A stretch of 64,000 bases of DNA from a virus (Duplodnaviria; Caudoviricetes), in the IMG/VR virus record IMGVR_UViG_3300031867_000002, positions 1 through 64,000 of that record, one strand, 5' to 3'. Below are positions 1,988 through 53,051 of the stretch, one piece after another. Within the stretch, counting starts at the first letter, position 1, and the number at the start of each line of letters is the position of its first letter. The notes beneath the pieces were generated by a model that worked only from the letters and a program-made list of their open reading frames with translations, was not told the DNA's origin and did not search any database. The position numbers and the translations under genes were made by a program.

Positions 1988-2070
1988 AAAAATAAGAGAG
2001 ATGACCGAAGCCATCTCTATTATTTTTCTGAAAGGGTTTAAAATATGCAATCTGTGCTTATAACTGCATT
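1988..2070 (-). ncRNA. Candidate small RNA (late promoter, anti-SD segment, UUCG terminator hairpin)
   Basis: AACT-ataaag-TA at 2070-2081; no ORF; hairpin 1997-2018 followed by a U-rich tract. Confidence 0.45.
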
Positions 2071-2082
2071 ACTTTATAGTTA

Positions 2083-3075
2083 TCACTCTAGTAAATAAAT
2101 ATAGTTCAATATATTATCTGGGTCGTTATTGAACTTGTTATCTAATAAAGATGCTAACTCTGTAATGTCACAATACTTTTTAATAGCCCAGGTATCGTCT
2201 AAGATTTCAGGAGATTCAGCATATGATAAAGCTTGTGTATTTAAATCACACATAACCCATCTAGCTTCTATACCCATTAATCCTGTAATCTCATCAAACT
2301 TTGCATATGGTGCATTATAACCTTGATAGAGATATCCTTTAGATATTAATTCTCTTACAGTATTAAGAGCTTTCTTATAAGGATACACTAATGGTAATCC
2401 GAGTTCTTTACATTTATTAAAAGCCATGATAACAGATATCAATCCAGGGTGTAAATCTGAACTCGGAGTTGTGTTACCAAACATCAAATCTATAGAGTTA
2501 TTACTTGTTACAATATACTTATGCTTTATACCTAATCTTAACATATAGCATCTTGTAAACAAAGCAGCTAGTTGATAAGCGTATACGTCATTACTTATAA
2601 CAAGTCTAGAAGGTGCATTATCGGTTATCTTACTTAATAGAAAAGATTGTATAATACATATTGGATTTACATTCTTTCTATAGATATAGTAGATATCTGG
2701 TAGATACTTACATAAAACTTCAAGTATTCTAAACATCTCTTCATTAGTTTCTAGATTGTGTATCTCACAAATGTTTCCTATTAGATTTACTTTAGAATTA
2801 ACGAGAAATACTCTTACTTGTGTTTTGAGAAGATTTCTGAAAAAATGACGATAGTGAGCTGCCATATTGAGTACGTTGACAGCGATAGTTTTTGTATCAC
2901 TACCTATAATTTCACTACTTAATACATCTTTATAGATAGATTGTATATCAATAAAGATATCTAATCCATGACCAATCATATCTTTAGTAGAAGGATTAGA
3001 ATTCAGCATTTGTTTTAATACGTCATAACGTACAAACTTATTATAGAGTATAGCTCTATTAATCATTATAATCAC
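2083..3075 (-). CDS. Putative PIN/FEN-like 5'-3' nuclease-fold protein
   Basis: IFIDIQS N-terminal acidic strand and LVISNDVYAYQL resemble the SxDxDxxQL motif of 5' nucleases. Confidence 0.45.
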   Translation of the reverse strand: MIIMINRAILYNKFVRYDVLKQMLNSNPSTKDMIGHGLDIFIDIQSIYKDVLSSEIIGSDTKTIAVNVLNMAAHYRHFFRNLLKTQVRVFLVNSKVNLIGNICEIHNLETNEEMFRILEVLCKYLPDIYYIYRKNVNPICIIQSFLLSKITDNAPSRLVISNDVYAYQLAALFTRCYMLRLGIKHKYIVTSNNSIDLMFGNTTPSSDLHPGLISVIMAFNKCKELGLPLVYPYKKALNTVRELISKGYLYQGYNAPYAKFDEITGLMGIEARWVMCDLNTQALSYAESPEILDDTWAIKKYCDITELASLLDNKFNNDPDNILNYIYLLE

Positions 3076-3914
3076 CTCTTAGTATTTCTAATCCATTCAA
3101 GACTTTCTTCGGTGTATCCATAAACAATAGTATTAACATAATCCCAGAATATCCAGGTACCACCCCATTGATTAGTTACTTTTGTTTGATTTGGAACAAA
3201 GGTAGATTTATCAGATAGAGTACCTGGTCCTTCTATTTTTACAAGGTCGCCAATATAGTCATGCTCTACAATACATAATGGAACTACTCTATTACCATTT
3301 ATAACATCTGTAACCCAAGATATAACTTCTTGGTCTTTAGATAATGCAGAGTTTCTATCCATAATATTAGTCTTAATTATATAATTATAGAAGTCATAGT
3401 CGGATTTATCATTGTGTCTATATCTAGTAAATTCATATAGGTTTAATAAAGCTGATAATCTATGCTTTACAGCTGCTTCATCTTTACCAACTCTACTACT
3501 CATACAATAAGCAATAGCTTTGATTTGAGCTTCTGTTAGATTATCTACACTACCAGCATATATATCTTCGCTAGTTGGTTTAGGTGTAGATTTGTCTCTT
3601 ATAAGATTATAAAGTTTTTCATTACAATTATTACATACTGTAGATAGCTTTATAATAGGACTTTCATTATCATTAAACTCTATGATATATTGTCTTCTAC
3701 AACAATCACATGTTTTGGTCATATTAGCGTGATGAGGGGTAGAAACTGGAAATTGTTTTAAAAGACATGTTTCAAATACACATCTTTTCTTAGACTCATC
3801 TCTATAGAGACAATTTTCTTCACAAGGTACGATGTCGACACCATCGTCGACATCGTAATTGGGAATAGCATTGTTATATTTTTTATTTGCTTGATTAGAA
3901 TCAAATACTCCCAT
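3072..3914 (-). CDS. Hypothetical protein with Cys-rich N-terminal region
   Basis: 280-aa ORF with SD; CxxC clusters (CDCC, CNNC). Confidence 0.7.
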   Translation of the reverse strand: MGVFDSNQANKKYNNAIPNYDVDDGVDIVPCEENCLYRDESKKRCVFETCLLKQFPVSTPHHANMTKTCDCCRRQYIIEFNDNESPIIKLSTVCNNCNEKLYNLIRDKSTPKPTSEDIYAGSVDNLTEAQIKAIAYCMSSRVGKDEAAVKHRLSALLNLYEFTRYRHNDKSDYDFYNYIIKTNIMDRNSALSKDQEVISWVTDVINGNRVVPLCIVEHDYIGDLVKIEGPGTLSDKSTFVPNQTKVTNQWGGTWIFWDYVNTIVYGYTEESLEWIRNTKR

Positions 3915-3915
3915 A

Positions 3916-4302
3916 TTAACCTCCTATTAAAGACTTAGGGTCATAGAAGTCATCCTCAAGAGTTCCAACTTCTTCATCAAATAATTCATCACCTTTTCCT
4001 AAAACAGAATTAAGACTCTTTCTAAAGTCATGACGTTCTTGAAGATGCGTAAGAATCTCTTTTGTGTTACCATATCCTAAATCAATGAATGCATTAATCG
4101 CATTTGCTGGTCCTTCATCAGACATAAAGGTACAACCCTTTGCTGCCTGTTCACCACCATCTGGTGTGTTTCGCCAACGACGAATCTCAAGATAGTCTTT
4201 GTCACCATCTCCCCAACGAATCTTTCTAAGTGCGGTAAATTGATTACCCTGTTCTTCAAGAGTATAATCGATATTATCAATGATTGAATACTTAAAATCC
4301 AT
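3916..4302 (-). CDS. PC4/YdbC-like single-stranded DNA-binding protein
   Basis: ALRKIRWG...YLEIRRW...KGCTF matches the YdbC/PC4 pattern (LxxxSW...YDIRxW...KGITL). Confidence 0.65.
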   Translation of the reverse strand: MDFKYSIIDNIDYTLEEQGNQFTALRKIRWGDGDKDYLEIRRWRNTPDGGEQAAKGCTFMSDEGPANAINAFIDLGYGNTKEILTHLQERHDFRKSLNSVLGKGDELFDEEVGTLEDDFYDPKSLIGG

Positions 4303-4368
4303 ATAAATTCCTCCTTAATATAAAAAAGACAGATGTGGGTAAAACCACATCTGTCTTAGCTTAGACTA

Positions 4369-5229
4369 TCAGTTATTAGAGAAAGAGACACCACTTTCAG
4401 CACTCAATTTACGACGTCTAGCTTTACTGTAACGATGGATTTCCATAAGTTCATCCATATTATTAATCTTCTTACTCTTAGTAGATAATGCAAAGATATA
4501 CTTGTTTCTATTTTCTGCAGTGCAGCAAAGTGTAGAAAGTACTTTCTCAGCATCAAGATAGATATATGCAATAATGTTATTGTATTGAATTCCGTTATAT
4601 CCAGCTTGTCTACTATTTCTAATATCATAATTTTCTCCACGAATCCATTTTCTCTTCTTATTACCAGGAGAGTAATAGAGAAGAGTTGTAAGACGTGCTT
4701 TAGCTTCTTTTGTAATGCTAGCATATTTGCAAGCATCAGAATTGCTCATATTCTGATTGTTAACAAGTGACATAAATGTTTCTGCAACACCACTTGGATT
4801 AGATGCAGGGTCAAAAGTACTTGTTACAGCTCTATAAATTTCTTCAGGACTATCATCCTTAGCAGCTTTGAACTGGTCTTCTGTAAGGAATCTAAATTCT
4901 GTAACGAACATCCACTTGTTATATTTTGTGGAATATTCAAGGTGAGCAGCATAGCAGTCAACAAACAGCTTCTGCATAATACCAAGAAGTGCATTGTTAA
5001 TTTTGCTACGTTCTTTGAAATCCGACATATGATAAACACAGTCGGGTGCATGATTGAAGAGAATGAGTTCATCCTCTTCGAGCTGAATATCATGGACTTT
5101 GAATTCTTCGTCCTTATCAGCTTCACCGAGACTTGATTCGATATAAGCTTCGCCTCCACGAATCATACTCTTCTTGAGATTTCTAAGGTTCTTTACGAGT
5201 TCCTCAGTTTGATTATTATAGTTCGACAT
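4369..5229 (-). CDS. Hypothetical early protein
   Basis: 286-aa ORF, AAGGAGG SD, early-type promoter with stem-loop at 5263-5306, terminator about 4328-4356. Confidence 0.8.
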   Translation of the reverse strand: MSNYNNQTEELVKNLRNLKKSMIRGGEAYIESSLGEADKDEEFKVHDIQLEEDELILFNHAPDCVYHMSDFKERSKINNALLGIMQKLFVDCYAAHLEYSTKYNKWMFVTEFRFLTEDQFKAAKDDSPEEIYRAVTSTFDPASNPSGVAETFMSLVNNQNMSNSDACKYASITKEAKARLTTLLYYSPGNKKRKWIRGENYDIRNSRQAGYNGIQYNNIIAYIYLDAEKVLSTLCCTAENRNKYIFALSTKSKKINNMDELMEIHRYSKARRRKLSAESGVSFSNN

Positions 5230-5318
5230 AAATAATTCCTCCTTAAGGATAATATAGTTTGTATTAAAGAGCGTCGACTCTCTTTAATCACGAAAATAAT
5301 ATACAACCGATATTGGGT

Positions 5319-6092
5319 TTACCCAAGCATAAATTGAACTATGTCGATATTCTCTTTCATGGCTTGCATTGATTCTACAGCTATTCTGGTTGTATCAATA
5401 ACGTAAAGCACTATGAAATACTTATCTTTATCTTCATCATAGATTAAGAAGTATTTCATATTTACGTTATCTATATTAACGCTATCATCAAACTCATATA
5501 CTTCATATGAAAGAATGTATGTGTTTAAATATTCTTCTGCTTTATCAAAAACAGAATCTGGTAACTTAGCATTATTATTAACAACTTCTTCCATGTCAAT
5601 ATTATCATATTGACTAATCTGCATTACATAAGCTCGTCTAGATGACATATATGAAAAATACATTCTCCATATAGTATCTAAGTCTTCCGATAACGGTTGG
5701 TAAAGGTTATTGAGTTTCAATATATAGTTAACCGTTTTATCAAATACAGCTTTTCTCATATATCTATACACTCTAAAGACTATACCAAATTCAGCATGAT
5801 GATTAACTAACCAATTTTTTATATACTCATTAAATAATAAAAGTATATGAGATACATCTCCTAATAGCATATCAAATCCAGCAATAGCAAACGGTAAACT
5901 ATCACTGAAAAGTGTATATTCATTGTCAAGCTCATTCTTATCAATGGTATGAAGTTCAAATGTTTCTTCATCCATAAATATAGCTGTATCGTTATCATTT
6001 AGTTTTACTAATGATAAGATTCTATAATCTTCATCTGTTTCAAATTTATAAAATCTCATTCCAAGTTCCATTGTTTCGTTTCTAAATTTCAT
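5319..6092 (-). CDS. Hypothetical protein
   Basis: 257-aa ORF with SD, downstream of dcd. Confidence 0.75.
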   Translation of the reverse strand: MKFRNETMELGMRFYKFETDEDYRILSLVKLNDNDTAIFMDEETFELHTIDKNELDNEYTLFSDSLPFAIAGFDMLLGDVSHILLLFNEYIKNWLVNHHAEFGIVFRVYRYMRKAVFDKTVNYILKLNNLYQPLSEDLDTIWRMYFSYMSSRRAYVMQISQYDNIDMEEVVNNNAKLPDSVFDKAEEYLNTYILSYEVYEFDDSVNIDNVNMKYFLIYDEDKDKYFIVLYVIDTTRIAVESMQAMKENIDIVQFMLG

Positions 6093-6106
6093 ATCTATCT
6101 CTCCTA

Positions 6107-6658
6107 TTATACACTATAGTGGTAACCATCAATCTTTCTAGAATCGATGTTAACCTTAGATTCTGTTGGCTCTATTTGACCTTGATATCTACCTGAATAT
6201 AGAAAATCTACTTTGCCATCAGGTTTCTCAAAGTATACTTGTGCTACAGGATAACCAGCATATACTCTAACTGGTTGTACTACAGTGATTTCCAATGTGT
6301 ATGTTCCTTGAAAACCGATATCTCCAAATCCAGCTGTAAGATGAATTTGCATACCTAATCTACCAATAGAACTTCTTCCATCAATAGCAGATATGTATTT
6401 ATCAGAGCCTATTATTTCTTTAGTAGCTCCAATATAAAGAGTATCAGGTAATAGTACAAAACCTTCTTTAGGAATAACAATTTCATTATAACACTTGTTA
6501 TCTTGTTTAAGGTCTAGTATAGCACCTCTCTCATAAACCTTTAATCTATCTCCTAATCTTACATTATAAGAGTTAGGATTTAGCTGTTCAATATTAAAAG
6601 GTTCAATGATAATATTATTCTTCTTAACCTGTTTAAGAATTTCATGTCCAGTAAGCAT
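6107..6658 (-). CDS. dcd: dCTP deaminase (possibly bifunctional dCTP deaminase/dUTPase)
   Basis: LNPNSYNVRLG, DGRSSIGRLG, AGFGDIGFQGTYTLEI and YSGRYQGQ motifs. Confidence 0.92.
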   Translation of the reverse strand: MLTGHEILKQVKKNNIIIEPFNIEQLNPNSYNVRLGDRLKVYERGAILDLKQDNKCYNEIVIPKEGFVLLPDTLYIGATKEIIGSDKYISAIDGRSSIGRLGMQIHLTAGFGDIGFQGTYTLEITVVQPVRVYAGYPVAQVYFEKPDGKVDFLYSGRYQGQIEPTESKVNIDSRKIDGYHYSV

Positions 6659-6720
6659 TGTTCATAATCCCTCCTTGCTGCGTACATTGATTACTTATAT
6701 GTTTACGATATTATAAATTT

Positions 6721-6757
6721 GTAAAAGTTTAATAGGTTCTTTATATATAATTATAGT
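6721..6757 (+). promoter_or_regulatory. Early-type phage promoter (representative copy: GTAAAAGTT...TATATATAAT...GTG)
   Basis: The GTAAAAGTT form recurs at about 38606, 39985, 40571 and 42721; the core TATAT(A/T)AT recurs at about 13410, 22047 and 42166 (+) and about 5300, 15835, 30868, 35543, 52972, 57117 and 58720 (-). Confidence 0.7.
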
Positions 6758-6773
6758 GAAAGGAGGTGATAAT

Positions 6774-7064
6774 ATGAAAGTAAAATTTCATAAAATAATA
6801 GACACTGATTTATGCACAGCACAGATATACATTTCTATTATTAATATCAACAAAGTTGAAGAGTTTCATGTTATATATATTGAGGACGTGGAACCCGAAC
6901 TCATCGACGAGGAAGAAATAAAGTACCAATTAAACTGCGCTTTATGCGCAGGTGAATTATCAGAAGAATGGTACTATTCACTCGAAGATGCTATCGAAGA
7001 TAACAACTTAGATGGCATCGAAGAAATAGTTACTGGTCTTGAAGGCCAAGAATTAGATATCTAA
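6774..7064 (+). CDS. Hypothetical acidic protein in a stand-alone early cassette
   Basis: AGGAGGTG SD; own promoter and terminator. Confidence 0.75.
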   Translation: MKVKFHKIIDTDLCTAQIYISIININKVEEFHVIYIEDVEPELIDEEEIKYQLNCALCAGELSEEWYYSLEDAIEDNNLDGIEEIVTGLEGQELDI

Positions 7065-7069
7065 TAATA

Positions 7070-7104
7070 AAAAGAAGGCGGGACTTTACATCCCGCCTTC
7101 TTTT
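7070..7104. terminator. Bidirectional intrinsic terminator
   Basis: aaaagaaggcggga-ctttaca-tcccgccttctttt. Confidence 0.85.
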
Positions 7105-10272: not shown

Positions 10273-10319
10273 ATAGACACTCCTTTCATAGAATTATTAC
10301 TAATTTGTTCAAAATAGGA

Positions 10320-10615
10320 GAAATGAACCCTAGCATATCGCTAGGGTTCTACTTCATGAAAGGAATCAATATTATATAGCCATGAACTCACAGGGGTTCA
10401 GATATCTTCATAATTAGGAGTAAGAATGGTAATAAGCTTAACAGCAATAAAGCTAGTGAACAGAAAGTCTTATGGTGATTTTGCATTAGATGGTACCTAT
10501 CTAACAATCAGTGCTTTGTTCTATGTCAGCAGGCGGTATAAAGCGTTTATAATTCTTACTCCCCGCGTAAATGTATTGGTAAATGTCCGAACGAATAATC
10601 TAAAACCAATACATT
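10320..10615 (-). ncRNA. Candidate structured non-coding RNA of about 295 nt
   Basis: Late promoter 10615-10626; two 11-bp perfect stems (10570/10615 and 10417/10562) with nested hairpins; terminator 10325-10349. Confidence 0.5.
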
Positions 10616-10643
10616 ACTTTATAGTTGGTAGTTTATTAAATAA

Positions 10644-11807
10644 TTATACTATATTATTATAATTATCAATTAGAATAGCATAATCTGGAATAGAAGTGAT
10701 TAGGTCAAGTACAGCTTCAGCATACTTTCTAATCTCATATTGTGCATGTGAATCTGTTCTAAGATTTAAGAAAGCAATAAGACTAGATAAAGTGAATGTC
10801 ATATATAATCTACCACAATTAATATTTGCTGGTAGGAATGCTCTTGCTTCTTCTTTATTAAGACCCTGTTTAATTAGTTGGTTATATACTTTAGTAAGAC
10901 CAGTTGCAAGTACAGTAAGAGGTGCTGTAATTTTATTACCAAAGATTTCTACAGTATATTCTTTATCATCTGTATAATCTGGTACAGGAATAGTAAATGA
11001 AGCGTTCTTAGCATTTACATATCTCTGAGATTCTTGTGTAATAGCATTTCTATGACGTACAAGTTGATGTGTTGCTGTACGAGACATATTATAGAATACT
11101 ACTGTGATAGGAAGAATATTGTAGACTACATTTCTATTAAATCCAGAATGAAGAATAATCTCTGCAATATTATCAAGTTTTGTAACAAATGGTTCATCCG
11201 CTCCAAGCATGATTCTCTTAGTATATTCTTCTCCATTAGTAGTAAGACCATCAATAGCAGTTTCTAATTTGATACTATAATCAATACCAGTATTAGGTTT
11301 ATCGATATTCAATATATCTGGCTCTACATCAACAAAGTCATCGAAATTAATATGCTTACCTGTACCATAGAGTTCTTTTACAGTATTTTCTTTAAGAATC
11401 TTACAGATGTCACGAATAATATCATTTCTATCATATACATCTGATTCAAGATTGTTAAGAAAATGCTTATATGCTCTGATACTACCATTGACAATAAGAT
11501 TATAGTTTGTATTTTCAAGTTGTACAGTATAGAATTCTAACCACTTAGAATATTCTAATCCAGTAAGTTCAATGATACTATTATGAAGACTATAAGGGAT
11601 ATCATTGAAAAGAATACAAAGTTTGCCATGTTCTAAAATAGATTCATGACCAGCATTGATTCTTTTACCGATATAATCCTTCTTTTCTAAATAATTGATA
11701 TTCTTTGTATTGTTATAACAACAAGTACAAGCCTCATAGATATTATTTACTAGACTATTCTTATAGAGCAATCTAGCATTCAGTTTGATTGAAGATAATC
11801 CGAACAT
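10644..11807 (-). CDS. thyX: Flavin-dependent thymidylate synthase (long, two-module type)
   Basis: GHESILEH; SRTATHQLVRHRNAITQESQRYV; EEARAFLP; LRTDSHAQYEIR. Confidence 0.92.
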   Translation of the reverse strand: MFGLSSIKLNARLLYKNSLVNNIYEACTCCYNNTKNINYLEKKDYIGKRINAGHESILEHGKLCILFNDIPYSLHNSIIELTGLEYSKWLEFYTVQLENTNYNLIVNGSIRAYKHFLNNLESDVYDRNDIIRDICKILKENTVKELYGTGKHINFDDFVDVEPDILNIDKPNTGIDYSIKLETAIDGLTTNGEEYTKRIMLGADEPFVTKLDNIAEIILHSGFNRNVVYNILPITVVFYNMSRTATHQLVRHRNAITQESQRYVNAKNASFTIPVPDYTDDKEYTVEIFGNKITAPLTVLATGLTKVYNQLIKQGLNKEEARAFLPANINCGRLYMTFTLSSLIAFLNLRTDSHAQYEIRKYAEAVLDLITSIPDYAILIDNYNNIV

Positions 11808-11810
11808 GTG

Positions 11811-12605: not shown

Positions 12606-12699
12606 AATATCTACCTCCTTATAATATATATGTTTATTACTTAGAAGTTTTTAACTAACTATCAAATATCTAGACATGATATTATTTTACAAATTCGGG

Positions 12700-12711
12700 A
12701 ACAAATATATA
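12700..12711 (+). promoter_or_regulatory. Late-type promoter AAC(A/T)-N6-TA (representative copy)
   Basis: Same spacing at + 15869, 16527, 41226, 43293, 48659, 60514 and - 1977, 2081, 6703, 10309, 10626, 12649, 22010, 25187, 26279, 26805, 36893, 36998, 38495, 38598, 39994, 48622, 49672, 53630, 57674, 63501. Confidence 0.8.
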
Positions 12712-12936
12712 AAATAATCCTTGTAGCATTCAGGAACGGAGAACTTGGTTGGGGCGGTGCTCTTTCAAGTTAGAAAAATTTCAAAGAAAAGTGGAACGAT
12801 AGTTGAATAGGTTTTAATTATAGGTGTAGTTAAGTTTCAACGCTATCGTTTATTATTTATATTTGTGCTTACGCACTTATATTTGCCACTCGGCTTACAG
12901 CCTCGTGGCTCTTATTTATTTTTTTACCACTACAAC
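12711..12936 (+). ncRNA. Candidate structured RNA or long structured leader
   Basis: Follows a late promoter; stems aacttg/caagtt, aacgatag-ttgaa/ttcaa-cg-ctatcgtt, gtgc-ttac-gcac, gccac..ggct-tac-agcc..gtggc, possible closing ttgtag/ctacaa; no ORF. Confidence 0.45.
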
Positions 12937-12991
12937 GATTATTTTATAAGTTTCTAAGTGACGTCGTATACCGTTTTGAAAAGGAGATATT

Positions 12992-16407: not shown

Positions 16408-16417
16408 TTATAATGAT

Positions 16418-16615: not shown

Positions 16616-16696
16616 TCAGCTTATTAAAAGCTGACAATTTCCACGTTTTGTTTCAACATTTTCTCCAATATTTTATTTTATAATTCTCTGATTTTA

Positions 16697-16733
16697 ACCC
16701 CGCAGGAACATAGAGTCCTGCGGGGTCTTTTTA
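16697..16733. terminator. Intrinsic terminator
   Basis: accccgcagga-acataga-g-tcctgcggggt followed by a T tract. Confidence 0.8.
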
Positions 16734-25143: not shown

Positions 25144-25319
25144 CGTAATTCCTCCTTATTGCGTACGCTGACGTTTATATATTAGTTCTAGATAGTGTAA
25201 AAGCAGACTAAATCCCATGAGGATAACCTCATGGGATTAGACTTCGTTAAAAAAGGAGTCATTTTTTATGAATTCTTTACAACGATTGTAGGAATTGGTG
25301 GCTGGTTTATGGAAACCAG

Positions 25320-25395
25320 TGGTCGAGATGGCTGGGCTCGAACCAGCGACCAGCCCCTTATAAGGAGGCCGTTCTACCGACTGAACTACACCTCG
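25320..25395 (-). tRNA. tRNA-Ile (TAT)
   Basis: cgaggtg/catctcg acceptor, gcctc-ctTATaa-ggggc, GTTCGAG T-loop, CCA. Confidence 0.85.
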
Positions 25396-25401
25396 AATAA
25401 A

Positions 25402-25475
25402 TCGGGATGACAGGACTCGAACCTGCGGCATCTTGGTCCCAAACCAAGCACTCTGCCAAACTGAGTTACATCCCG
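25402..25475 (-). tRNA. tRNA-Pro (TGG), CCA not encoded
   Basis: cgggatg/catcccg acceptor, cttgg-ttTGGga-ccaag. Confidence 0.9.
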
Positions 25476-25481
25476 TTCTAG

Positions 25482-25687
25482 GGTTGTTATAAAACTAGGT
25501 AGTTCAGTATCCGAATGTGGATACCTTATACAAAATCTCAAACATCAGTATCTAGAATGATGATGACTATCGCTAGCGTTAATAGTCAAGCTTTTGGATT
25601 CTATCTCTTAACTAAATTTCTCAATCCCAATAAAGGATATATTGAAAGATAATAAAGTGTTTTGATTAAACTAAGTTTATAACAACC
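25482..25687 (-). ncRNA. Candidate structured RNA of about 206 nt directly upstream of tRNA-Pro
   Basis: Ends form a 12-bp perfect stem GGTTGTTATAAA/TTTATAACAACC; internal hairpins gtatcc/ggatac and tgactat/atagtca; no ORF. Confidence 0.5.
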
Positions 25688-25843
25688 AATGGACATTAAT
25701 ACAAGGAGTTATCTTATATTAATGATGTATGACCCAGCAACTAAGTTACTGGGTCGCCTAGACTGTCTAGACAAGTAGGAGGTCACATTGGCACACCATG
25801 GCAGGAAACCAATGTTTATGTCAAACCGTGAGGTTGTAGCAGG

Positions 25844-26221: not shown

Positions 26222-26389
26222 ATTATTCGCTCCTTTAAAATAATTGTGTTAGATTTTACCTAATGATTACTTATATGTTTATATAGTATTTAAAAAATAA
26301 AATACCGCCTTGACCATTGCCAAGGCGGTGTGTATGTTTGGAGGTACTCGTTCAAATATATCACTCTTGTATGCCATATTACTATTGTT

Positions 26390-36904: not shown

Positions 36905-36987
36905 TAAAAGAAAAAGTATGTCAGACTGGGTGTGGACCAGTCTGACATTAATATCAAAATGTGTTGTGTGAAATCTTTACTATCATT
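36905..36987 (-). ncRNA. Candidate small RNA (late promoter, CA-rich segment, terminator)
   Basis: AACA-tataat-TA at 36987-36998; hairpin atgtcagactgg/ccagtctgacat followed by a U tract; no ORF; recA has its own promoter at 36893. Confidence 0.4.
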
Positions 36988-36996
36988 AATTATATG

Positions 36997-38292
36997 TTAA
37001 TATTTGTCGATTGTATCCTCAGAATACGGGGTTTCATTGTTATTTGTTTTCTTTGCAGTAAAACCACGTTTCTTTTCATAGCCACCACTGCTCTCTACTT
37101 TAGAATCTGGTGTACCAGAAGAACCTGTAGGTCTTCTTCTTTTACTACGTCTAATAACAAGTTCATCTTCTTCAGTAGTTTCTTCATTATCAAACTGAGC
37201 AAAGAAATCATTATTATCATTCTTCTTTCTTCCAAGTGTAGAGCTTTGAGTTACCGTCTCCATATTTGAGATAGCACCAAAAAAATCATCATCTTTTGTA
37301 CTAGAAGTAAGATTCTTTTGATATTTAGAATACATATCTTGAAGCTCTTCTTTAGGAAGATTCATGCCAGATGCGATAATTCTAACAAATTCAGGTTCAT
37401 CTACTTTATACTGTCTATGAACAAAGAACTCTTCAATGTTATTATTACCACAAAGCTTCTTCTTGATAGAAGAAAAACTTGTATCAATAACACTAAGATT
37501 ATCGTCAGAGATATTCATGAATACACCAATCTTTGTTGCAGACGGTTCAAAGTCAAGAGAAGAGGAATAATCAATAGCATCAGATACAATCTGGTCAAAT
37601 TGATTAGGATTCTTGAGCTTCTTATCAATTTTAACTTCTGTTACAAACATCATACCTGGATTAGTAATAAGCTTGTAATGGTCTGTGTCATCGATATTCT
37701 GTTCAGAATCTATAATATCAAATGCGTTTACTACTTTAATTCCTGTAGAGATATCTTGATTAGCAAGTTTTTCTGCCACAAAGGTATTGGAAGTCTTTTC
37801 AAGAAATCTTTTATTACTAACTGTTTTGATAACATAGTTACCTCCTTCAAGGTCTTTAAAATACTCAATAGTATTCTGAAGACCTCTGGTATCAGATTCG
37901 AATCCACAGATAAGAGTGATGATTACTGGTAAATCAAGTTGAGATTCAATATATTTTGCAAGTACTACAGATGCACCAGAACCAGATGCACCTTCTGTGG
38001 TAGTAATAATATTTATATATTGTATATCATCTGGAATAAGTTCATTAATGACATTAGGATTATTTCTAAGATAAGTAAGCATGAGCTTTTTAGCAGCAGA
38101 ACGTACTTTACCACATCCTGCATCTGGGTCTTCAGAGATGATAATACAATTATCTCTATAATCTTCTGGAATGTCTTTAATAGTAGAGTTTACAATACAA
38201 CACTCATCTCTATCAAGTGTACCATTCTCAATGCAATAAATCATTGCTTTGGTTGCACCTTGTCCACAACCAAATGTAAAGCTTCTGTTCAT
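36997..38292 (-). CDS. Tubulin/FtsZ-family GTPase (PhuZ/TubZ-like)
   Basis: FGCGQGA, VNST, GCGK, TTEGASGSGAS (variant of GGGTGSG), NIDDTD T7 loop; charged C-terminal tail. Confidence 0.85.
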   Translation of the reverse strand: MNRSFTFGCGQGATKAMIYCIENGTLDRDECCIVNSTIKDIPEDYRDNCIIISEDPDAGCGKVRSAAKKLMLTYLRNNPNVINELIPDDIQYINIITTTEGASGSGASVVLAKYIESQLDLPVIITLICGFESDTRGLQNTIEYFKDLEGGNYVIKTVSNKRFLEKTSNTFVAEKLANQDISTGIKVVNAFDIIDSEQNIDDTDHYKLITNPGMMFVTEVKIDKKLKNPNQFDQIVSDAIDYSSSLDFEPSATKIGVFMNISDDNLSVIDTSFSSIKKKLCGNNNIEEFFVHRQYKVDEPEFVRIIASGMNLPKEELQDMYSKYQKNLTSSTKDDDFFGAISNMETVTQSSTLGRKKNDNNDFFAQFDNEETTEEDELVIRRSKRRRPTGSSGTPDSKVESSGGYEKKRGFTAKKTNNNETPYSEDTIDKY

Positions 38293-38457: not shown

Positions 38458-38499
38458 TCTAAACCCTCCTTTCATCATAGATTTATATATTAGTTATTA

Positions 38500-38587
38500 A
38501 AGCAGTATATATCCACACATGACTAGCATGTGTGGATATATACCGAATAGGAGATTTTATTTGCGTATTTGCGAATTTCTAGTCATT
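38500..38587 (-). ncRNA. Candidate small RNA (late promoter, anti-SD segment, 17-bp hairpin)
   Basis: AACA-tataaa-TA at 38587-38598; perfect stem 38505-38521/38527-38543; no ORF. Confidence 0.5.
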
Positions 38588-38796
38588 ATTTATATGTTAT
38601 AGATTTGTAAAAGTTGAATATATTAGTTATATACAATTTAAGTGAGTAAGAGATAATATCTCAAGCTCCAGGAATAAGCAAGCTAGGATAAAACCTATGT
38701 TCCTGAGAAAACATATCAAATTTACTTTATGGTGTGGAGATAATATCAAGAGCACCAGCAGCTCTAAGAAGCTGCATCACCCTAAGGAGGGTTATT

Positions 38797-44520: not shown

Positions 44521-44529
44521 GGCGTCGGT

Positions 44530-44979: not shown

Positions 44980-44990
44980 AAATAAGTGAG

Positions 44991-46346: not shown

Positions 46347-46359
46347 GGGAGGTTTTATT

Positions 46360-47274: not shown

Positions 47275-47309
47275 AAGAAAGTCCCACTGGATATAACCAG
47301 TGGGACATT

Positions 47310-47609
47310 TTAACTTTCAATTTCAACAATAGGTAATCCGTTAGATATGTCGTAACTACAAACTAGCATAGCATACATTACAGCATCTTTACCAGCTTCC
47401 CATAAACAAGTATCTACAAGTTCTTTATCATACTTATCATCTATAGAAATAGTAATCTCATTTCCAGATAATAAGATGTTAGAATTTATATTATTCTCAT
47501 TTAGTTTACCTCTATAGATATCAATGATATCCATAGAGGTATTTACAGATGGCTCTAGTCTGTTTAAATTAAGAGTTAAAGTCAATTTCAACACCCTCCA
47601 CATTAGCAC
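47310..47609 (-). CDS. Hypothetical protein (start uncertain)
   Basis: ORF fills the gap to terminator 47281-47306; no clear SD. Confidence 0.45.
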   Translation of the reverse strand: MLMWRVLKLTLTLNLNRLEPSVNTSMDIIDIYRGKLNENNINSNILLSGNEITISIDDKYDKELVDTCLWEAGKDAVMYAMLVCSYDISNGLPIVEIES

Positions 47610-47826
47610 GCAATACTAAAATGTCGAGATAATGATTCATAGCTTTAAGTTGGTCATTATAAAGACCTCTAGGACAAGTAGGCTTGAATTCTAATGTACC
47701 ATCATCCCATTTTTTAAGCATTGCTTCAAGTCCATCAATACGTGTTTTAAGCTGATAGAATTCAGCTTTAAATCTTTCTTTATAATCGCTACTATTCATC
47801 ATATTTACAGTTTCATTAAGTTTCAT
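47569..47826 (-). CDS. Conserved small phage protein (crAss001_48-like)
   Basis: MNSSDYKERFKAEFYQLKTR...FKPTCP...QLKAM..YL.IL..RA. Confidence 0.7.
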   Translation of the reverse strand: MKLNETVNMMNSSDYKERFKAEFYQLKTRIDGLEAMLKKWDDGTLEFKPTCPRGLYNDQLKAMNHYLDILVLRANVEGVEIDFNS

Positions 47827-47840
47827 TATAATTACCTCCA

Positions 47841-48368
47841 TTAATCAAGTGTTGTCCAATTGGGACAAGGAGAAGAAACCTTAAGTCCTTCATGTGCAGG
47901 AATGATAGTTTCAGCCTTTTCGTATCTAGGTGTTCCATCATCATTCACACCAGTCTTCATCGGGAACTTCTTTTGAGATTCAGGAATTTCTTTAATTTGA
48001 ATTGAGATATTAGATTTTTCTGTAGCTCCAAGATTAATCTTTCTACCTGTTCTAAGAGCACAGTTGAAGAAATCCTTAGACAGAGTAACCATAGTCTCTG
48101 CATCAGATTTTTTAACATCATAATTATCAGCAATAGACTGAGCTTCAATTTTAGGCATCTTAGTTGTAGATGCAATGATATTAGCTGTCATATCTCTAAA
48201 ATCTTTTGCTGGACAATGTTGTTCATGAGTAGCATAATCTGTAACAATAAAATCTTTGTCGTTAAGCATAGCTCTCATAACAGTTACTTCATCACGTTTA
48301 GATGCAGATTTCTGTTTAAGATTATCGTGAATATCCTTGATAAGGTCTTGTACGTTCATAGATTCCAT
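47841..48368 (-). CDS. Hypothetical protein, weakly HU/IHF-like C-terminus
   Basis: GRKINLG...IIPAHEGLKVS. Confidence 0.6.
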   Translation of the reverse strand: MESMNVQDLIKDIHDNLKQKSASKRDEVTVMRAMLNDKDFIVTDYATHEQHCPAKDFRDMTANIIASTTKMPKIEAQSIADNYDVKKSDAETMVTLSKDFFNCALRTGRKINLGATEKSNISIQIKEIPESQKKFPMKTGVNDDGTPRYEKAETIIPAHEGLKVSSPCPNWTTLD

Positions 48369-48383
48369 AATGGTATCCTCCTA

Positions 48384-48572
48384 TTAATTATTAATGATTT
48401 GTATATGTTTATTGTCTTTCTTTAGATTATCCCATTGAAAGGCGAATAAAGCATCGTTAGCATTGTTCTTTCCATTCTTTTTAATGTATTCGTTCAATTC
48501 TTCTGGTGTTGAACTAGCTAAAAAAGAAATAAAATCTTCTCGTTCATTTTTAGTCATTGGTGACTTTTTCAT
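48384..48572 (-). CDS. Hypothetical protein
   Basis: 62 aa, AAGGAGGT SD, late promoter at 48622. Confidence 0.7.
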   Translation of the reverse strand: MKKSPMTKNEREDFISFLASSTPEELNEYIKKNGKNNANDALFAFQWDNLKKDNKHIQIINN

Positions 48573-48688
48573 ATAATTACCTCCTTAAGTAGTCTGAGAG
48601 ACTACTCATTTATAAATATGTTTCTCGCTTAGTAAAAAACATACGTATTGCGTCGTTTAACATTCATATAATAAGGAGGCTGATATAT

Positions 48689-49456
48689 ATGATTAGCGAA
48701 AATTCTATGATGAGTATTCCAGTAAATGAAAATGATATAATCAAGATTCCAAAAGATTTACCTGATATGGAATTAGAAGATTATGATTTGATAGATGATA
48801 AAGATAGAGAAAAGTATATTACTGATTTAGAACGACATATTAGAGCTTCTTTTGAATACCGTCAAATGGTTCAATATCTAAGAGAATATATGAACATGAA
48901 TTCTTGTGCATTTATTCCTAATGTAACTAATGAGTTTAGTAGAAAGGTTAGAATAGAATTACATCATTCTCCATTTACATTAAGAGATATTTGTTGTATT
49001 ATTCTAAATAAGAGAATGAAAAATGGAGAAATGTTAACTATTGAATCTGTAGCATATGAAGTTATGTTTAATCATTATTGTCTTATGGTAGGATTGATTC
49101 CTTTATCTGAGACAGTACATGAATTAGTACACACTCAATACTTATTCATTCCTACAAATAAAGTATATGGGTATTATAAAGCATTTCTAAGTGTATACAA
49201 AGAATACATTGACCAAGAGTTATTAGATAAGCTAGATGAATTAGAAAAGCTTACTATTGCTGGTACTTATAATGATACTTATAAACAAGTATTAGAAAAG
49301 AAGTATATTACTATTGATATGGAAGGTAATAACCAATTTGAACAGCTTCATGATTTACAAGATATACTTAAACAAAGATTGAGTGAGATTAAAGAAGCTG
49401 AAAAACCTCAAGGTACTTTTGCTAATTCTAATATAATGCATCCAGATAATTTATAA
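48689..49456 (+). CDS. HNH-like nuclease-fold protein
   Basis: IELHHSPF...GLIPLSETVHELVH; late promoter at 48659. Confidence 0.6.
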   Translation: MISENSMMSIPVNENDIIKIPKDLPDMELEDYDLIDDKDREKYITDLERHIRASFEYRQMVQYLREYMNMNSCAFIPNVTNEFSRKVRIELHHSPFTLRDICCIILNKRMKNGEMLTIESVAYEVMFNHYCLMVGLIPLSETVHELVHTQYLFIPTNKVYGYYKAFLSVYKEYIDQELLDKLDELEKLTIAGTYNDTYKQVLEKKYITIDMEGNNQFEQLHDLQDILKQRLSEIKEAEKPQGTFANSNIMHPDNL

Positions 49457-49579
49457 GAGAGATAATAACTCCCAGGGCATGGAGACCCTGGGAGTTATCT
49501 TTTAAAGGAGTCATATTATGAACAGCATCCGCCAAACGAGGAAAAACAAATGTACCACTCCATGCCCTAAGAGTGGTTT

Positions 49580-49654
49580 TGGTTGGGGTAGCGGGATTTG
49601 AACCCACGCGTGACAGAGTCAAAGTCTGTTGCCTTACCGCTTGGCTATACCCCA
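49580..49654 (-). tRNA. tRNA-Gln (TTG)
   Basis: tggggta/tacccca acceptor, acaga-ctTTGac-tctgt, CCA; late promoter at 49672. Confidence 0.92.
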
Positions 49655-49726
49655 ATATATTATTATTTAGTTGTATCATTATTAAAAAATAAACCTCAGT
49701 TTACCTGAGGTTTATTTATAATAATG

Positions 49727-50134
49727 CTAAAATACCTCTTCTGCGATAGGATTTCTATCTGCAAGTGTAAGTCTAGTTATTTTAGTGATTATTATATTAC
49801 CATTCTCTATTGTACAGTATCCATTAATCTTAATACATGGATTTCTTAGCTTATGATAGTATAAGCTGTCTAATAATTCTATATTAAGATAGTTATCATC
49901 ATATCCTTCTATATATTGCAGAGCTTTTGCTACTACAGTATCATTAATATCTGGATATTCGGATAATAATGGTCTATTTGGGTCATTAGCTCTAGGAACA
50001 TAGATATTATGTCCAGATTGGAATAACATTTTCTCATGAACCTCGTTTAGATTGATAATTTTGGCTCCACTAAGTAGATATTCCATATTATTATCATTTA
50101 TAAAGAATGGTACTTTAACTATTGCTTGTTTCAT
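49727..50134 (-). CDS. Hypothetical protein
   Basis: 135 aa, AAGGAG SD. Confidence 0.7.
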   Translation of the reverse strand: MKQAIVKVPFFINDNNMEYLLSGAKIINLNEVHEKMLFQSGHNIYVPRANDPNRPLLSEYPDINDTVVAKALQYIEGYDDNYLNIELLDSLYYHKLRNPCIKINGYCTIENGNIIITKITRLTLADRNPIAEEVF

Positions 50135-50517
50135 ATTGATAAACTCCTTTCTTGCTTATATTCGTTAACAATATCTTTAAATAACTTAAGATATACGTCA
50201 CCACATTTCTTAGCATCTGTTTTCTTAATAGTATTATTGTTATTTTTAATGAAATAATTGATTACATTGATATTATTGTCTTTATCAACTTCATACAATA
50301 ATCTAATCTGAAGATTTACTACACAACACTTATAAACATAGAAATGCCCATCTATAATATCATGAATAATAACGCTATCACCAAATATATTGGTGATAGC
50401 GATGTTTTGCTTCTTATATTCGTTATATCTTTTAGTGAGTTTACTAATAGCTTTACCTATCATGTTTTTACTATTCTTATCAAGCTTCTTATAAGATTTA
50501 TCCTTGTGAATAGTCAT
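50131..50517 (-). CDS. Possible RelE/ParE-fold protein
   Basis: KSYKKLDKN..NMIGKAISKL...FYVYK...IRLLYEV...VINYFIK layout. Confidence 0.45.
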   Translation of the reverse strand: MTIHKDKSYKKLDKNSKNMIGKAISKLTKRYNEYKKQNIAITNIFGDSVIIHDIIDGHFYVYKCCVVNLQIRLLYEVDKDNNINVINYFIKNNNNTIKKTDAKKCGDVYLKLFKDIVNEYKQERSLSI

Positions 50518-50535
50518 ATTGATTCCTCATTTCTA

Positions 50536-52908
50536 TTATTTTTTGTATACCTTAACTACTTCTCCACCCTTAATCATCTTATTACCAGTACTAATGCTAG
50601 TACCATTAGCAATAGTAACAACTGGGATTTCGATAGCTTCTCCAGTAGGGGCAATTAGGCATACTAGAGTGTCATTATTATTAACACCATAGATTGAAAC
50701 AATATTATCTGTTTTACCTAACTTGATAACATTGCTACCTGCTTTAGAACGACCTTTAATAACAGAATCTGGAATGATTCTATTAATATAACCGTTCTTT
50801 GTTACAATTACAATATCTGAGAATTGTTTATTCATTGCAGACATTCCTTCTACATTAGTAGTTTTAGAAGACATAGATACACATCCTCTAGCATTACGTT
50901 TTAGAATCGGAATATCGTTAATATCAATTCTTAATGCTTTCTTAGAGCCATACACGACAATCTCTGCATTATTACCAAACAATAACAAATCAATTATTCT
51001 ATCGTTATCATCAAGTTTGCAATATACAAGACCAGATGTTGGAACTGCTAAGAAATCTGTTGTAGTCATTCTCTTAATAAAACCTTGTTTAGTAAGAGTT
51101 ACAATAAAGCCTTTCTTGAATTGCTCTAATATAGGCTCATAGATAACTGCAGTAATCTGGCTATTGATATACTTATTAATAAGTCTAATATCAACACCGT
51201 TACTATTCTTATCTGCAAACGGTATTTTAGAGATTGGAATATTATATACTTTACCAAGGTTGTCAAATAATAGAATACTCTTGCTATTATCACCAGTGAT
51301 AACAAATTTGATTACGTCATTCTTAGGTTTAGTAAGAGCTTCAGTTTCTCCAATCTTCTTAATGAAGTTACCTTCTGTTAATACTATTTTGAATATGCCA
51401 GCAGTAACTCCATTAACTTCTGATTCATTAATGAGTCTACATTTTCTAGGCTCACCATATTTTGCCTTGATATCCAATAATTCTTGAATGATGATATTTT
51501 CAATAGCACCATCTTGAAGAATACAATCACGACAATAGTTTGTTTCTTTAGTAAGTTTATCTTGTTCTGCTTTATAACTTGCAAGATATCCTTTACTAAG
51601 TTTCTTAATTTCACAATTGATAAAGAATTTTGCTTGTATATCTGTAATATTACATTTCTTGATAAGAGTCTCAATAATTACAGAATCGTCTGTTGTCTTA
51701 TTAGACTTTATGATTTTAATAATATCATCAGCTTTACCAGATTCAATTGCCCAGATATAAAGCTGAATCATATGAAGTCTAGTCATTTTCTTTTGAAGCG
51801 TATTTTCAAGCAGTCTAAACTTTGTAAGTTTTCTAAAGTCAATCCAAGCCTGAAGATATCCTTTATATGATAATCTTTTTGCTGGATGTTCTTTATCATT
51901 TATATCTAATACTTTGAGATTTACTCTCATTGTTTGCATAAGAGATGTGTTCTTATATAACTCATTACGCACATAGTTCGGGTCTGTTCCTGGTTTAAGA
52001 ATCAATACGAATCTCATATTATTTTCAGAAGATTGTTCTTCCATATCAATAATACCAGTAATCTTATTTTCTTTAACCATATTTTCAAGCTTTTCAATTA
52101 CTGTTTCTAAGAATGTGAGATTAGGACAAGACTTGATGACAAGTGTTTGACAATCTCTATATTTCTTTTCTACTCCATTATAAGGTTCGATATCTACAAT
52201 ACCTCTAACCTTAAAATTACCAAATCCCATTTTTGAAATTGATGCCCAGTCTGTATCAACAATCTCACACGATTGACACATATCTGGAACAAGAACAATA
52301 TTTACTTTTGGATTCTGTATTAACGCTATAGTAGCATCAATAACTTCACAAATGTTATGACTTGGCACATCTACTCTATCACCTACTGCGATACCATTAC
52401 AACCATTCATAAGAAGTAATGGTACTTTACAAGGTAAGAAACTAGGTTCTGGTCTAGAGTTATCGTAGTTTGGTTCCCAATCGATAATCTCTTTACACTT
52501 TACAAGTTCATCAAGAATACATTCTTGTGTAAACTTACTTAAACGTACTTCAGTATAACGTGTTGCAGCTGGAATATTTTGATAAGTGTTCCCAAAGTTA
52601 CCTCTACCATTAAACAATGGAATTTTAGTTTGAAACCAATTTACCATTGTATAGAGTGCTCCTTGAATAGAGGTGTCACCATGAGGATGATATTTCCCCA
52701 TTGTACTACCTACAATGTCTGCAGACTTTCTATTATTGTCTGCTGCATCACAGATAAATCTTGCGGTATAAATAATTCTTCTTTGTACAGGTTTGAGTCC
52801 ATCTCTAAACTCTGGTACTGTACGATGCCGTTCTACATACAGAGCATATTCTCTATAATCATCATGGAATTGCTCCGCTGCCTTCTTTTGAATAATTTTT
52901 TCAGCCAT
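50536..52908 (-). CDS. Type IIA topoisomerase subunit A (GyrA/ParC family)
   Basis: DGLKPVQRRI, KYHPHGD, AATRYTE, GIAVG; beta-pinwheel CTD with no clear QxRGGKG GyrA box. Confidence 0.93.
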   Translation of the reverse strand: MAEKIIQKKAAEQFHDDYREYALYVERHRTVPEFRDGLKPVQRRIIYTARFICDAADNNRKSADIVGSTMGKYHPHGDTSIQGALYTMVNWFQTKIPLFNGRGNFGNTYQNIPAATRYTEVRLSKFTQECILDELVKCKEIIDWEPNYDNSRPEPSFLPCKVPLLLMNGCNGIAVGDRVDVPSHNICEVIDATIALIQNPKVNIVLVPDMCQSCEIVDTDWASISKMGFGNFKVRGIVDIEPYNGVEKKYRDCQTLVIKSCPNLTFLETVIEKLENMVKENKITGIIDMEEQSSENNMRFVLILKPGTDPNYVRNELYKNTSLMQTMRVNLKVLDINDKEHPAKRLSYKGYLQAWIDFRKLTKFRLLENTLQKKMTRLHMIQLYIWAIESGKADDIIKIIKSNKTTDDSVIIETLIKKCNITDIQAKFFINCEIKKLSKGYLASYKAEQDKLTKETNYCRDCILQDGAIENIIIQELLDIKAKYGEPRKCRLINESEVNGVTAGIFKIVLTEGNFIKKIGETEALTKPKNDVIKFVITGDNSKSILLFDNLGKVYNIPISKIPFADKNSNGVDIRLINKYINSQITAVIYEPILEQFKKGFIVTLTKQGFIKRMTTTDFLAVPTSGLVYCKLDDNDRIIDLLLFGNNAEIVVYGSKKALRIDINDIPILKRNARGCVSMSSKTTNVEGMSAMNKQFSDIVIVTKNGYINRIIPDSVIKGRSKAGSNVIKLGKTDNIVSIYGVNNNDTLVCLIAPTGEAIEIPVVTIANGTSISTGNKMIKGGEVVKVYKK

Positions 52909-53051
52909 TGTGCATGACCTCCTTTTAAAATATTATTAAGCTGTTGTTACTCAGCTTATTCGTAATTATAATATATAATGAGAACAAAGTTTTCCTCACT
53001 AGGGCAAAGCCTAGTGAGGAAACACAACAGAATGGAGGTAAAAAGTAATGA

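Follow-up and report, generated by a model that had tools for sequence, protein, structure and literature searches.

RsaE/RoxS of the Bacillota are small RNAs that base-pair through C-rich seeds. The 3′ UTR of the Staphylococcus aureus icaR mRNA has an anti-Shine-Dalgarno (anti-SD) motif that pairs with the SD of the same mRNA. Among phages, the c4 antisense RNA of P1 and P7 masks the ribosome-binding site of an antirepressor operon; phage T4 silences its lysozyme (e), soc and I-TevI genes in early read-through RNA by SD occlusion, and T4 RegB destroys SD sites enzymatically. The Rsa RNAs of S. aureus carry a UCCC motif (PMC2790875). The small regulatory RNAs of virulent phages, jumbo phages especially, are almost uncharted; in a primary-transcriptome study of ΦKZ a single sRNA was predicted and was not detected (PMC8244752). 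In Bacillus phage AR9, the mapped late promoter is AACA-N6-TA/G, with its last base being the start site (PMC5312081). The AR9 late start site with the highest signal in Table S3 (3757), mapped experimentally at 75478 on the - strand, gives an RNA listed there as 'g090 antisense', which the authors described as an antisense RNA with no function assigned (PMC5312081).

We analysed a window of 64,000 nucleotides from an uncultured giant phage related to AR9, in which several short protein-less genes, as well as the tails of some genes and tRNAs, carry a C/U-rich stretch, here and in the relatives of this phage. As a single conserved and exposed C/U stretch mirrors ribosome-binding sites, these units and tails probably act as small RNAs masking such sites in host or phage mRNAs. 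A near-identity DNA search of the phage collection with this DNA gave no match. With Rfam, we saw only tRNAs in the whole window at the gathering score, and only tRNAs in the two largest spacers at E-values up to 5, where no match to RsaE/RoxS or another described family appeared.

Stand-alone late units and tail sites

A sequence-only reading of the window had listed nine non-coding sites where the reverse complement of an SD precedes a terminator-like hairpin. We found all nine at their positions (given below); they are on the transcribed strand, with a strong hairpin 5-35 nt further 3′. Most also have, as had been claimed, a start codon at typical spacing on the opposite strand; sites 10359 and 26340 lack one, and at 16657 the spacer is 3 nt. 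What had been called a dispersed family is held together by a common design, but the units have no sequence homology to one another.

The sites form two classes, stand-alone late units and sites in 3′ UTRs or tRNA trailers. A stand-alone unit is made of an AR9-type AACW-N6-TA promoter, a body of 55-300 nt and a terminator. The AAC(A/T)-N6-TA motif is three times denser in spacers, is located 8-25 nt before SDs and equals the AR9 late consensus; units A, B and C carry it, as do the families in relatives. The three ORF-less promoters reported earlier were indeed found (2070-2081, 10615-10626 and 38587-38598), as was a separate promoter for each next gene (1966-1977, 10298-10309 and 38484-38495). 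Units A, B and C are stand-alone; the remaining six listed sites form part of 3′ UTRs or tRNA trailers and are not separate units.

Unit A (1997..2081, - strand) starts with the late promoter AACTATAAAGTA at 2070-2081, continues with a 5′ hairpin (2045-2069) and an exposed CCCUUUC at 2030-2036 (site 2030, CCCTTTC in the DNA), and ends with a terminator at 1997-2018 and a U tract; it is ∼81 nt long and has no ORF. In the closest relative (L016), the promoter-plus-body segment is missing and the stop codon abuts the same terminator. Unit B (10325..10626, - strand) has its late promoter at 10615-10626, a structured body of ∼290 nt, UUCCUUUCAU at 10356-10365 (site 10359, TTCCTTTCAT) and a terminator at 10325-10349; in the gene after it, the late promoter at 10298-10309 is followed by the SD ATGAAAGGAG at 10280-10289. 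A unit of 110-330 nt occupies this position in 5/5 genomes, and unit B gave no Rfam match. Unit C (38503..38598, - strand), ∼92 nt long and without an ORF, combines the late promoter AACATATAAATA (38587-38598), an exposed CUCCU at 38549-38553 (site 38549, CTCCT) and a terminator at 38503-38545, with the next promoter at 38484-38495; it is kept, with a covarying hairpin, in G000 and G002-G004. Further stand-alone units, namely D, E, U167 and S77, are located elsewhere in the genome.

Three tail sites belong to tRNA trailers. The tRNA-Glu trailer (site 16657; 16663..16726, + strand) has CTCC, CUCC in the RNA, at 16663-16666 and a terminator at 16697-16726; with its CUCC 30 nt from the hairpin, it is the weakest of the nine, and its counterpart in G001 has CUCCU 6 nt ahead of the same hairpin. 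The tRNA-Ile trailer (site 25253; 25212..25258, - strand) carries CTCCTTTTTT (RNA CUCCUUUUUU) at 25249-25258 before a terminator at 25212-25237; in L009 the motif and the 21 nt preceding it are identical, while the hairpin is replaced. In the tRNA-Gln trailer (site 49504; 49466..49510, - strand), CTCCTTT (CUCCUUU) at 49504-49510 precedes a bidirectional terminator at 49466-49497, after which the - strand has no gene; L011 and L012 retain the motif CUCCUUUCAU, and L010 lacks it.

The other three sites are also on the - strand. Site 25777 (25731..25784), with GACCTCCTA (RNA GACCUCCUA) at 25776-25784 and a hairpin at 25731-25755, is part of a conserved 370-nt non-coding stretch ahead of tRNA-Pro; its motif CGACCUCCUA is kept in 5/5 genomes with differing hairpins. 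Site 26340 (26304..26345), in the 3′ UTR of a holin-family gene, has ACCTCC (ACCUCC) at 26340-26345 and a terminator at 26304-26329; in a relative, CCUCCU is found ahead of a different hairpin. Site 53034 (52993..53039), in another 3′ UTR, has ACCTCC (ACCUCC) at 53034-53039 and a hairpin at 52993-53020, and early-type (TATATATTAT) and late promoters of a GyrA-like gene come next. Its relatives show ACCUCC in L010, CUCCU in L013 and L014, the motif within a stem in L012 and L015, and no motif in L011. At some sites the motif resembles the 5′ arm of the hairpin that follows it; this is not general.

Position, conservation and accessibility of the C/U stretch

We counted anti-SD pentamers located ≤30 nt 5′ of the first hairpin in non-coding tails of ≥20 nt, and took dinucleotide-preserving shuffles as the null. 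The predicted excess over shuffled DNA was observed in this genome, with 7 of 24 tails against 0.98 expected (Poisson 7e-5). It extends to related phages with a weaker bias: 6/27 versus 1.25 in G001, 3/34 versus 1.24 in G002, 4/31 versus 1.53 in G003, 4/43 versus 1.57 in G004 and 2/16 versus 0.58 in AR9, i.e. 19 versus 6.2 for the four related whole genomes and AR9 pooled. In more distant relatives the enrichment is just ∼2.5-fold. The enrichment 5′ of hairpins is strand-specific, with the mirrored SD control at chance (9 versus 8.8). Tandem spacers as a whole contain only slightly more anti-SDs than expected (21 versus 14.5 ± 3.8), and the signal is positional, not global. Complete antisense modules of SD, spacer and ATG in tandem spacers are enriched here (10 versus 2.6, p = 0.005) and number 6 versus 2.2 in G003; no enrichment of such modules was seen in G001, G002, G004 or AR9.

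Across genomes with a protein identity of only ∼60%, we found six families of ORF-less units, each present in four or five of the genomes. Their hairpins are either replaced or covarying, and the motifs persist even where flanks and hairpins can no longer be aligned. For three families the longest k-mer found in every member includes the C/U motif or is identical to it (TTTCCTCT, TCCTTTCT and AAGGTATACCTCCA). One family has CCUCC in a hairpin loop, and one conserved unit family has no C/U motif. The predicted probability of the C/U motif being unpaired is mostly 0.5-0.96 (0.76-0.93 in the unit C family) versus an RNA-wide mean of 0.3-0.5. Folding models and alignments together support the view that the anti-SD stretch is the most conserved and the most accessible part of the stand-alone units.

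Mode of action and alternative explanations

Masking of SDs in trans is a plausible candidate reading. In our estimate there is an even chance that these are late phage small RNAs with an exposed C/U seed that pairs with SD regions, and thereby lowers translation or changes stability. The stand-alone units would be transcribed late from AR9-type promoters of the non-virion polymerase, while the RNAs of the remaining sites could only be generated as 3′ ends of mRNAs and tRNA precursors, protected by the terminator. Each RNA would expose a single-stranded C/U stretch copying a part of the 16S rRNA tail (CCUCC, CUCCU, UCCUCU or UUCCUUUCU), and this stretch would pair with purine-rich SD regions of mRNAs; such pairing may lower translation of the mRNA or alter its stability, similarly to the C-rich-seed sRNAs of Bacillota. 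We infer that the RNAs accumulate in this phage, act in trans and have host or phage targets. A wider version is distinctly more tentative: AR9-like jumbo phages of gut Bacillota might possess a conserved battery of at least six late RNAs mimicking the 16S tail that, together with the anti-SD 3′ ends, would compete with ribosomes for SDs.

The earlier suggestion that late anti-SD RNAs occlude initiation gains from the promoter and terminator design, the motif conservation and the accessibility, but no phage target pairs above the null. The null in the target searches consisted of reverse complements of real initiation regions, compared with non-self ones. Considering all 189 phage initiation regions, neither ungapped matches nor duplex energies were better than the null. 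No target stands out in a ranking of orthologous targets over five genomes, where the best mean rank of 0.08-0.10 is borderline against a null 5% point of 0.109. The top target of S77 in that ranking was rejected as an artefact of the palindromic promoter core ACTATATAGT. The C/U motifs showed no preference for early versus late genes. AGGAG is carried by 134 of the 189 phage genes; hence an anti-SD seed as generic as this would not spare the late mRNAs of the phage itself.

The C/U stretch could instead act in cis, pairing with the SD of the next gene. Because this pairing would be confined to read-through transcripts, the next gene would be translated only from its own promoter. We consider such insulation unlikely, yet it is the most probable of the alternatives and a serious competitor at tandem sites. 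The predicted pairing is 0.64-0.99 at 5/6 tandem sites: in modelled read-through RNA, the probability of pairing with the next SD is 0.98 for unit C, 0.975 for unit B (with a 9-10 nt match of TTCCTTTCAT to ATGAAAGGAG), 0.89 for site 53034, 0.66 for site 25253 and 0.64 for site 26340, and promoters are always located between the C/U stretch and its SD partner. For the sites in 3′ UTRs and trailers, masking of the following SD in cis, within read-through RNA, is an equally good explanation. Still, any anti-SD/SD pair in AT-rich RNA folds together; unit A pairs with the next SD at a probability of 0.02, and sites 49504 and 16657 are convergent, with no downstream gene on their strand, which makes such pairing impossible. 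In families E and U167, the invariant motifs (UUCCUUUCU and UUUCCUCU, respectively) neither match nor covary with downstream SDs, which vary from GGAGGAA to GGAGGTT, and the own promoter of the ORF-less units is left unexplained.

It is rather improbable that the C/U stretch, instead of being a pairing seed, serves recognition or processing, for instance by binding a pyrimidine-binding protein, by being cut by an RNase or by helping the phage polymerase to terminate. The motif is generic and short, the target searches yielded no specific RNA, and the feature that stays constant is the location of the motif immediately 5′ of hairpins; nevertheless, a match of ≥5 nt to the 16S tail is present in just 10 of 77 terminators, the motif-hairpin distance ranges from 2 to 37 nt, and the motifs of family S77 and of AR9 are found in a loop or at the 5′ end rather than beside the terminator.

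We find it still harder to regard the stretches as non-functional, either inverted initiation regions left by gene-cassette turnover or chance C/U runs selected by eye. Unit A is an indel, site 16657 is weak, and an excess of full antisense SD-spacer-ATG modules is seen only here and in G003, all of which would agree with such an origin; on the other hand, the motifs outlast the divergence of flanks and hairpins, the family-wide shared k-mers are the motifs themselves, and the enrichment is strand-specific with its control at chance.

Finally, real initiation on the opposite strand (mini-ORFs or ribosome loading on antisense transcripts) is very improbable: 8 of ∼14 motifs here do have CAT 7-9 nt upstream, the usual start spacing on the other strand, but the ORFs of 6-27 aa change in length or are lost in relatives (e.g. 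7 aa here, whereas the frame reads on in L009 and is 3 aa long or absent in L011 and L012), a 78-aa ORF opposite unit B is lost in L005, no late-promoter motif is found near the sites on that strand, distant relatives retain the anti-SD without CAT, and we rejected these ORFs as genes since they are not conserved.

Comparison with described systems

The absence of a jumbo-phage equivalent, as initially supposed, is accurate in that none has been described as such, but the AR9 start-site table holds one, listed as an antisense RNA. The unit at 75478 in AR9 lies in a spacer between two genes and has an AACA-N6-TA promoter, AAUGUCCUCCUGU, a 16-bp hairpin and a U-rich tail; its RNA would be ∼70 nt long, with no ORF and with an exposed CCUCCU at the 5′ end. 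We rejected the possibility that it is a mere reverse of a real initiation region, as the mapped start is 60 nt from the next gene. A second AR9 site, at 115851, has an ∼85-nt RNA with CCCCUC and a terminator. The 75478 unit is similar to those described here in its late promoter, lack of ORF, exposed C/U stretch, strong hairpin with U-rich tail and spacer location; it differs in having no sequence homology to them and in carrying the motif at the 5′ end, not beside the terminator. Among units of this design, the AR9 analogue is the only one with a mapped start. Since AR9 thus has a mapped and very abundant RNA of this design, a cultured model is available for immediate tests of the set.

The C-rich-seed sRNAs of Bacillota share with the units an own promoter, an intrinsic terminator and an exposed SD-complementary motif, and they too are several RNAs with a common motif and differing overall sequences. 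Those sRNAs are chromosomal and stress-regulated, whereas the RNAs here are phage-encoded under a phage-polymerase promoter, have CUCC/UCCU motifs nearer to the 16S tail and have no Rfam match. Sites 26340 and 53034 resemble icaR in that a 3′ UTR carries an anti-SD stretch immediately ahead of its terminator; however, the target of the icaR element is the 5′ UTR of the same mRNA, while the design here is also found in tRNA trailers and in ORF-less units with no SD of their own.

In T4, the complementary segment precedes the late promoter of the gene itself, so that masking is limited to long transcripts; a geometry of this kind is predicted at five tandem sites here. The T4 partners form a local hairpin, whereas here the pair would enclose the whole terminator and one or two promoters, and a T4-type model fails at the convergent sites and in families E and U167. 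The c4 RNA is likewise a phage-encoded small RNA with exposed segments complementary to a ribosome-binding region, but it is made by a temperate phage and has defined, specific targets in one operon, while the seed here is generic and no cognate target was found among the phage genes.

For annotation, these spacers should be seen neither as empty nor as noise from antisense transcription, and the very short ORFs on the opposite strand should be left out of gene calls. If trans-acting masking is correct, a conserved multi-gene set of late RNAs directed against ribosome-binding sites would add a post-transcriptional layer to gene control in jumbo phages. Such RNA-based reshaping of host or phage translation late in infection would be an RNA counterpart of T4 RegB.

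Anti-SD motifs upstream of terminators

The virus record, whose first 64 kb make up the window, has 224,632 bp with direct terminal repeats and a GC content of ∼31%; the minus strand carries most genes. Its split RNA-polymerase subunits are ∼25% identical to the counterparts in Bacillus phages AR9 and PBS1, and no close relative of this virus was found in the phage collection searched. Shine-Dalgarno sequences (SDs) are strong, with AGGAG ahead of 134 of the 189 called genes.

The sequence-only reading had proposed a dispersed family of late RNAs that expose the reverse complement of an SD (anti-SD) and could occlude translation initiation. All its motifs were found at the positions given: a C/U-rich SD reverse complement lies on the transcribed strand, with a stable hairpin 5–35 nt to the 3′ side. 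Using called genes, tRNAs and located hairpins, we counted non-coding tails (≥20 nt) with an anti-SD pentamer (CCTCC, CTCCT, TCCTT or CCTTT) ≤30 nt 5′ of the first hairpin; expectations came from dinucleotide-preserving shuffles. Such pentamers were enriched, as the proposal implied, occurring in 7 of 24 tails against 0.98 expected, and relatives exceeded expectation too: 6/27 versus 1.25, 3/34 versus 1.24, 4/31 versus 1.53 and 4/43 versus 1.57 in four related complete genomes, and 2/16 versus 0.58 in AR9. The mirrored control with SD pentamers was at chance (9 versus 8.8). Counted globally across spacers, anti-SD pentamers showed merely a mild excess; thus, the signal is positional.

Complete antisense modules (SD, 3–9 nt, ATG) between same-strand genes numbered 10 here versus 2.6 expected (p = 0.005) and 6 versus 2.2 in one relative, with no enrichment in the three other related genomes or in AR9. 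Taken across genomes, these tests show that the anti-SD bias extends across the clade, whereas the start-codon component is largely peculiar to this genome.

Stand-alone units with late promoters

The sites form two classes: stand-alone units versus sites in 3′ UTRs, tRNA trailers or the stretch before tRNA-Pro. In a stand-alone unit, a late promoter at or just past the upstream stop codon is followed by a body of 55–300 nt that often begins with a 5′ hairpin, by an unpaired C/U stretch and by a terminator with a U tract. Three such units lie inside the window on the minus strand: A (1997..2081), B (10325..10626) and C (38503..38598). Their AAC(A/T)-N6-TA motifs (2070–2081, 10615–10626 and 38587–38598) are present with no ORF following, and a separate copy of the motif precedes every downstream gene, in agreement with the sequence-only reading. 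Further units of this class are S77, U167, E and D (at 77.8, 167.0, 184.1 and 206.8 kb of the genome, respectively).

The AAC(A/T)-N6-TA motif, whose density in spacers is three times that in coding DNA and which mostly lies 8–25 nt before an SD, equals the late promoter mapped experimentally in AR9 (AACA-N6-TA/G, with the last base as start site; PMC5312081). Many hairpins are followed by TATATATTAT elements, which correspond to the AR9 early promoter (PMC5312081). Among AR9 late start sites the highest signal (3757) belongs to 75478 on the minus strand, listed as ‘antisense’ to g090 (Table S3 in PMC5312081); it is situated in a spacer between two plus-strand genes (NC_031039.1). The RNA starts with AAUGUCCUCCUGU, exposes CCUCCU and continues into a 16-bp hairpin with a U-rich tail, being ∼70 nt long if its 3′ end is placed from sequence. 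A second published ‘antisense’ late start site, 115851 (+) (Table S3 in PMC5312081), would, with the 3′ end placed likewise, give an RNA of ∼85 nt with an exposed CCCCUC and a terminator. Thus, late activity of promoters at the head of units with such a design is documented in a cultured relative, and for one of them it is very strong; the authors of PMC5312081 did not read these transcripts as sRNAs.

Families B, E, U167 and S77 are present in all five genomes, C and D in four; in the three more distant genomes protein identity to this genome is ∼60%. Promoter position is conserved across the families, and the hairpin is either replaced or covarying. The longest k-mers common to all members are TTTCCTCT (U167), TCCTTTCT (E) and AAGGTATACCTCCA (S77). 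Predicted probabilities of being unpaired are 0.5–0.96 for the C/U stretch in nearly every family member; the CCUCC of S77 is placed in a hairpin loop. Unit A is missing from the closest relative by a clean indel.

Several neighbouring features were noted. A ThyX-type thymidylate synthase gene (Pfam Thy1, E-value 5e-34) lies upstream of unit B at 10644–11807 (−); it is of note in that the late promoters of this phage match those of AR9, a uracil-DNA phage with a polymerase that reads template-strand deoxyuridine. The gene downstream of the small ORF of unit C (36997–38292, −) has a weak tubulin/FtsZ GTPase match (E-value 3e-4, below the Pfam cut-off). In another ORF-less late unit, at 36911–36998 (−), promoter AACATATAATTA is followed by a ∼45-nt body and a terminator; its family, kept in four genomes with UUUCACAC in common, is a different candidate sRNA, since it has no C/U anti-SD motif. 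In the divergent 386-nt spacer at 12606–12991 (+), a plus-strand AACTATCAAATA motif precedes an ORF-free stretch of ∼250 nt and two hairpins; the terminator is not preceded by an anti-SD motif, and this could be a further non-coding unit.

Sites in 3′ UTRs and around tRNAs

The second class comprises the 3′ UTR sites 26340 and 53034, the tRNA trailer sites 16657, 25253 and 49504, and site 25777, in a conserved non-coding stretch of 370 nt that lies before tRNA-Pro. Their motifs are mostly kept in relatives although hairpins change; the exceptions are 49504 and 53034, whose motifs are absent in the relatives' loci L010 and L011, respectively. The gene after site 53034 (50536–52908, −) encodes a GyrA/ParC-type topoisomerase subunit (E-value 4e-97).

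The 370-nt stretch (25476–25843, −), bounded by a 125-aa gene and tRNA-Pro, shows good conservation in the closest relative and shares with distant relatives CGACCUCCUA and a second, UAACUNCCU-like block. It had no Rfam match and could represent a structured leader or else a longer ncRNA. The 808-nt spacer homologous in position to site 25777 in related genome G003 (L021 13526–14333) holds five CTTCCTTCTA copies ∼85–125 nt apart (C1:27513–27903), each followed by a TATAAT-like sequence; this 10-mer has zero copies in the genome studied here. The tRNA sets at 25320–25475 and 49580–49654 differ from those of an 82%-identical relative (L009/L010). In that relative no tRNA-Ile follows tRNA-Pro, an additional tRNA-Met comes after tRNA-Gln, and there is one more tRNA-Lys; conservation of the trailer motifs there is partial.

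Possible modes of action

The exposed C/U stretch of a phage RNA could pair with SDs of other RNAs, thereby masking them in trans. For phage mRNAs, which the sequence-only reading envisaged as targets besides those of the host, predicted duplexes with the phage's own initiation regions were no better than a null controlling for likeness to an initiation region. Ranking of orthologous targets over five genomes was borderline, predicted targeting did not distinguish early- from late-promoter genes, and covariation with targets was not reproduced for this genome's families.

The main rival, which we consider unlikely, is cis insulation, the motif pairing with the SD of the next gene in read-through RNA. 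Modelled read-through RNA does form this pairing at five of the six tandem sites, and the unit B motif matches the next SD over 9–10 nt; however, two sites have no downstream gene, the unit A motif does not pair with the next SD, and the invariant E and U167 motifs neither match nor covary with downstream SDs. It is rather doubtful that the C/U stretch is a protein-binding or processing element. That the motifs are non-functional leftovers or chance occurrences is improbable; on comparative evidence the genes of the ORF-less units look real. Initiation on the opposite strand at the SD-ATG modules is highly improbable, and genes there were rejected: the ORFs behind the modules (6–27 aa) change length or are lost in relatives, the 78-aa ORF opposite unit B is not conserved, and no late-promoter motif was found on that strand near the sites.

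The literature searched yielded no description of such RNAs for jumbo phages; the primary-transcriptome study of ΦKZ predicted one sRNA, and its detection failed (PMC8244752). The units described here share the architecture of the Bacillota base-pairing sRNAs, which carry C-rich seeds (PMC2790875), and because of this likeness we favour masking of SDs in trans, a role that by analogy the units have about an even prospect of playing.
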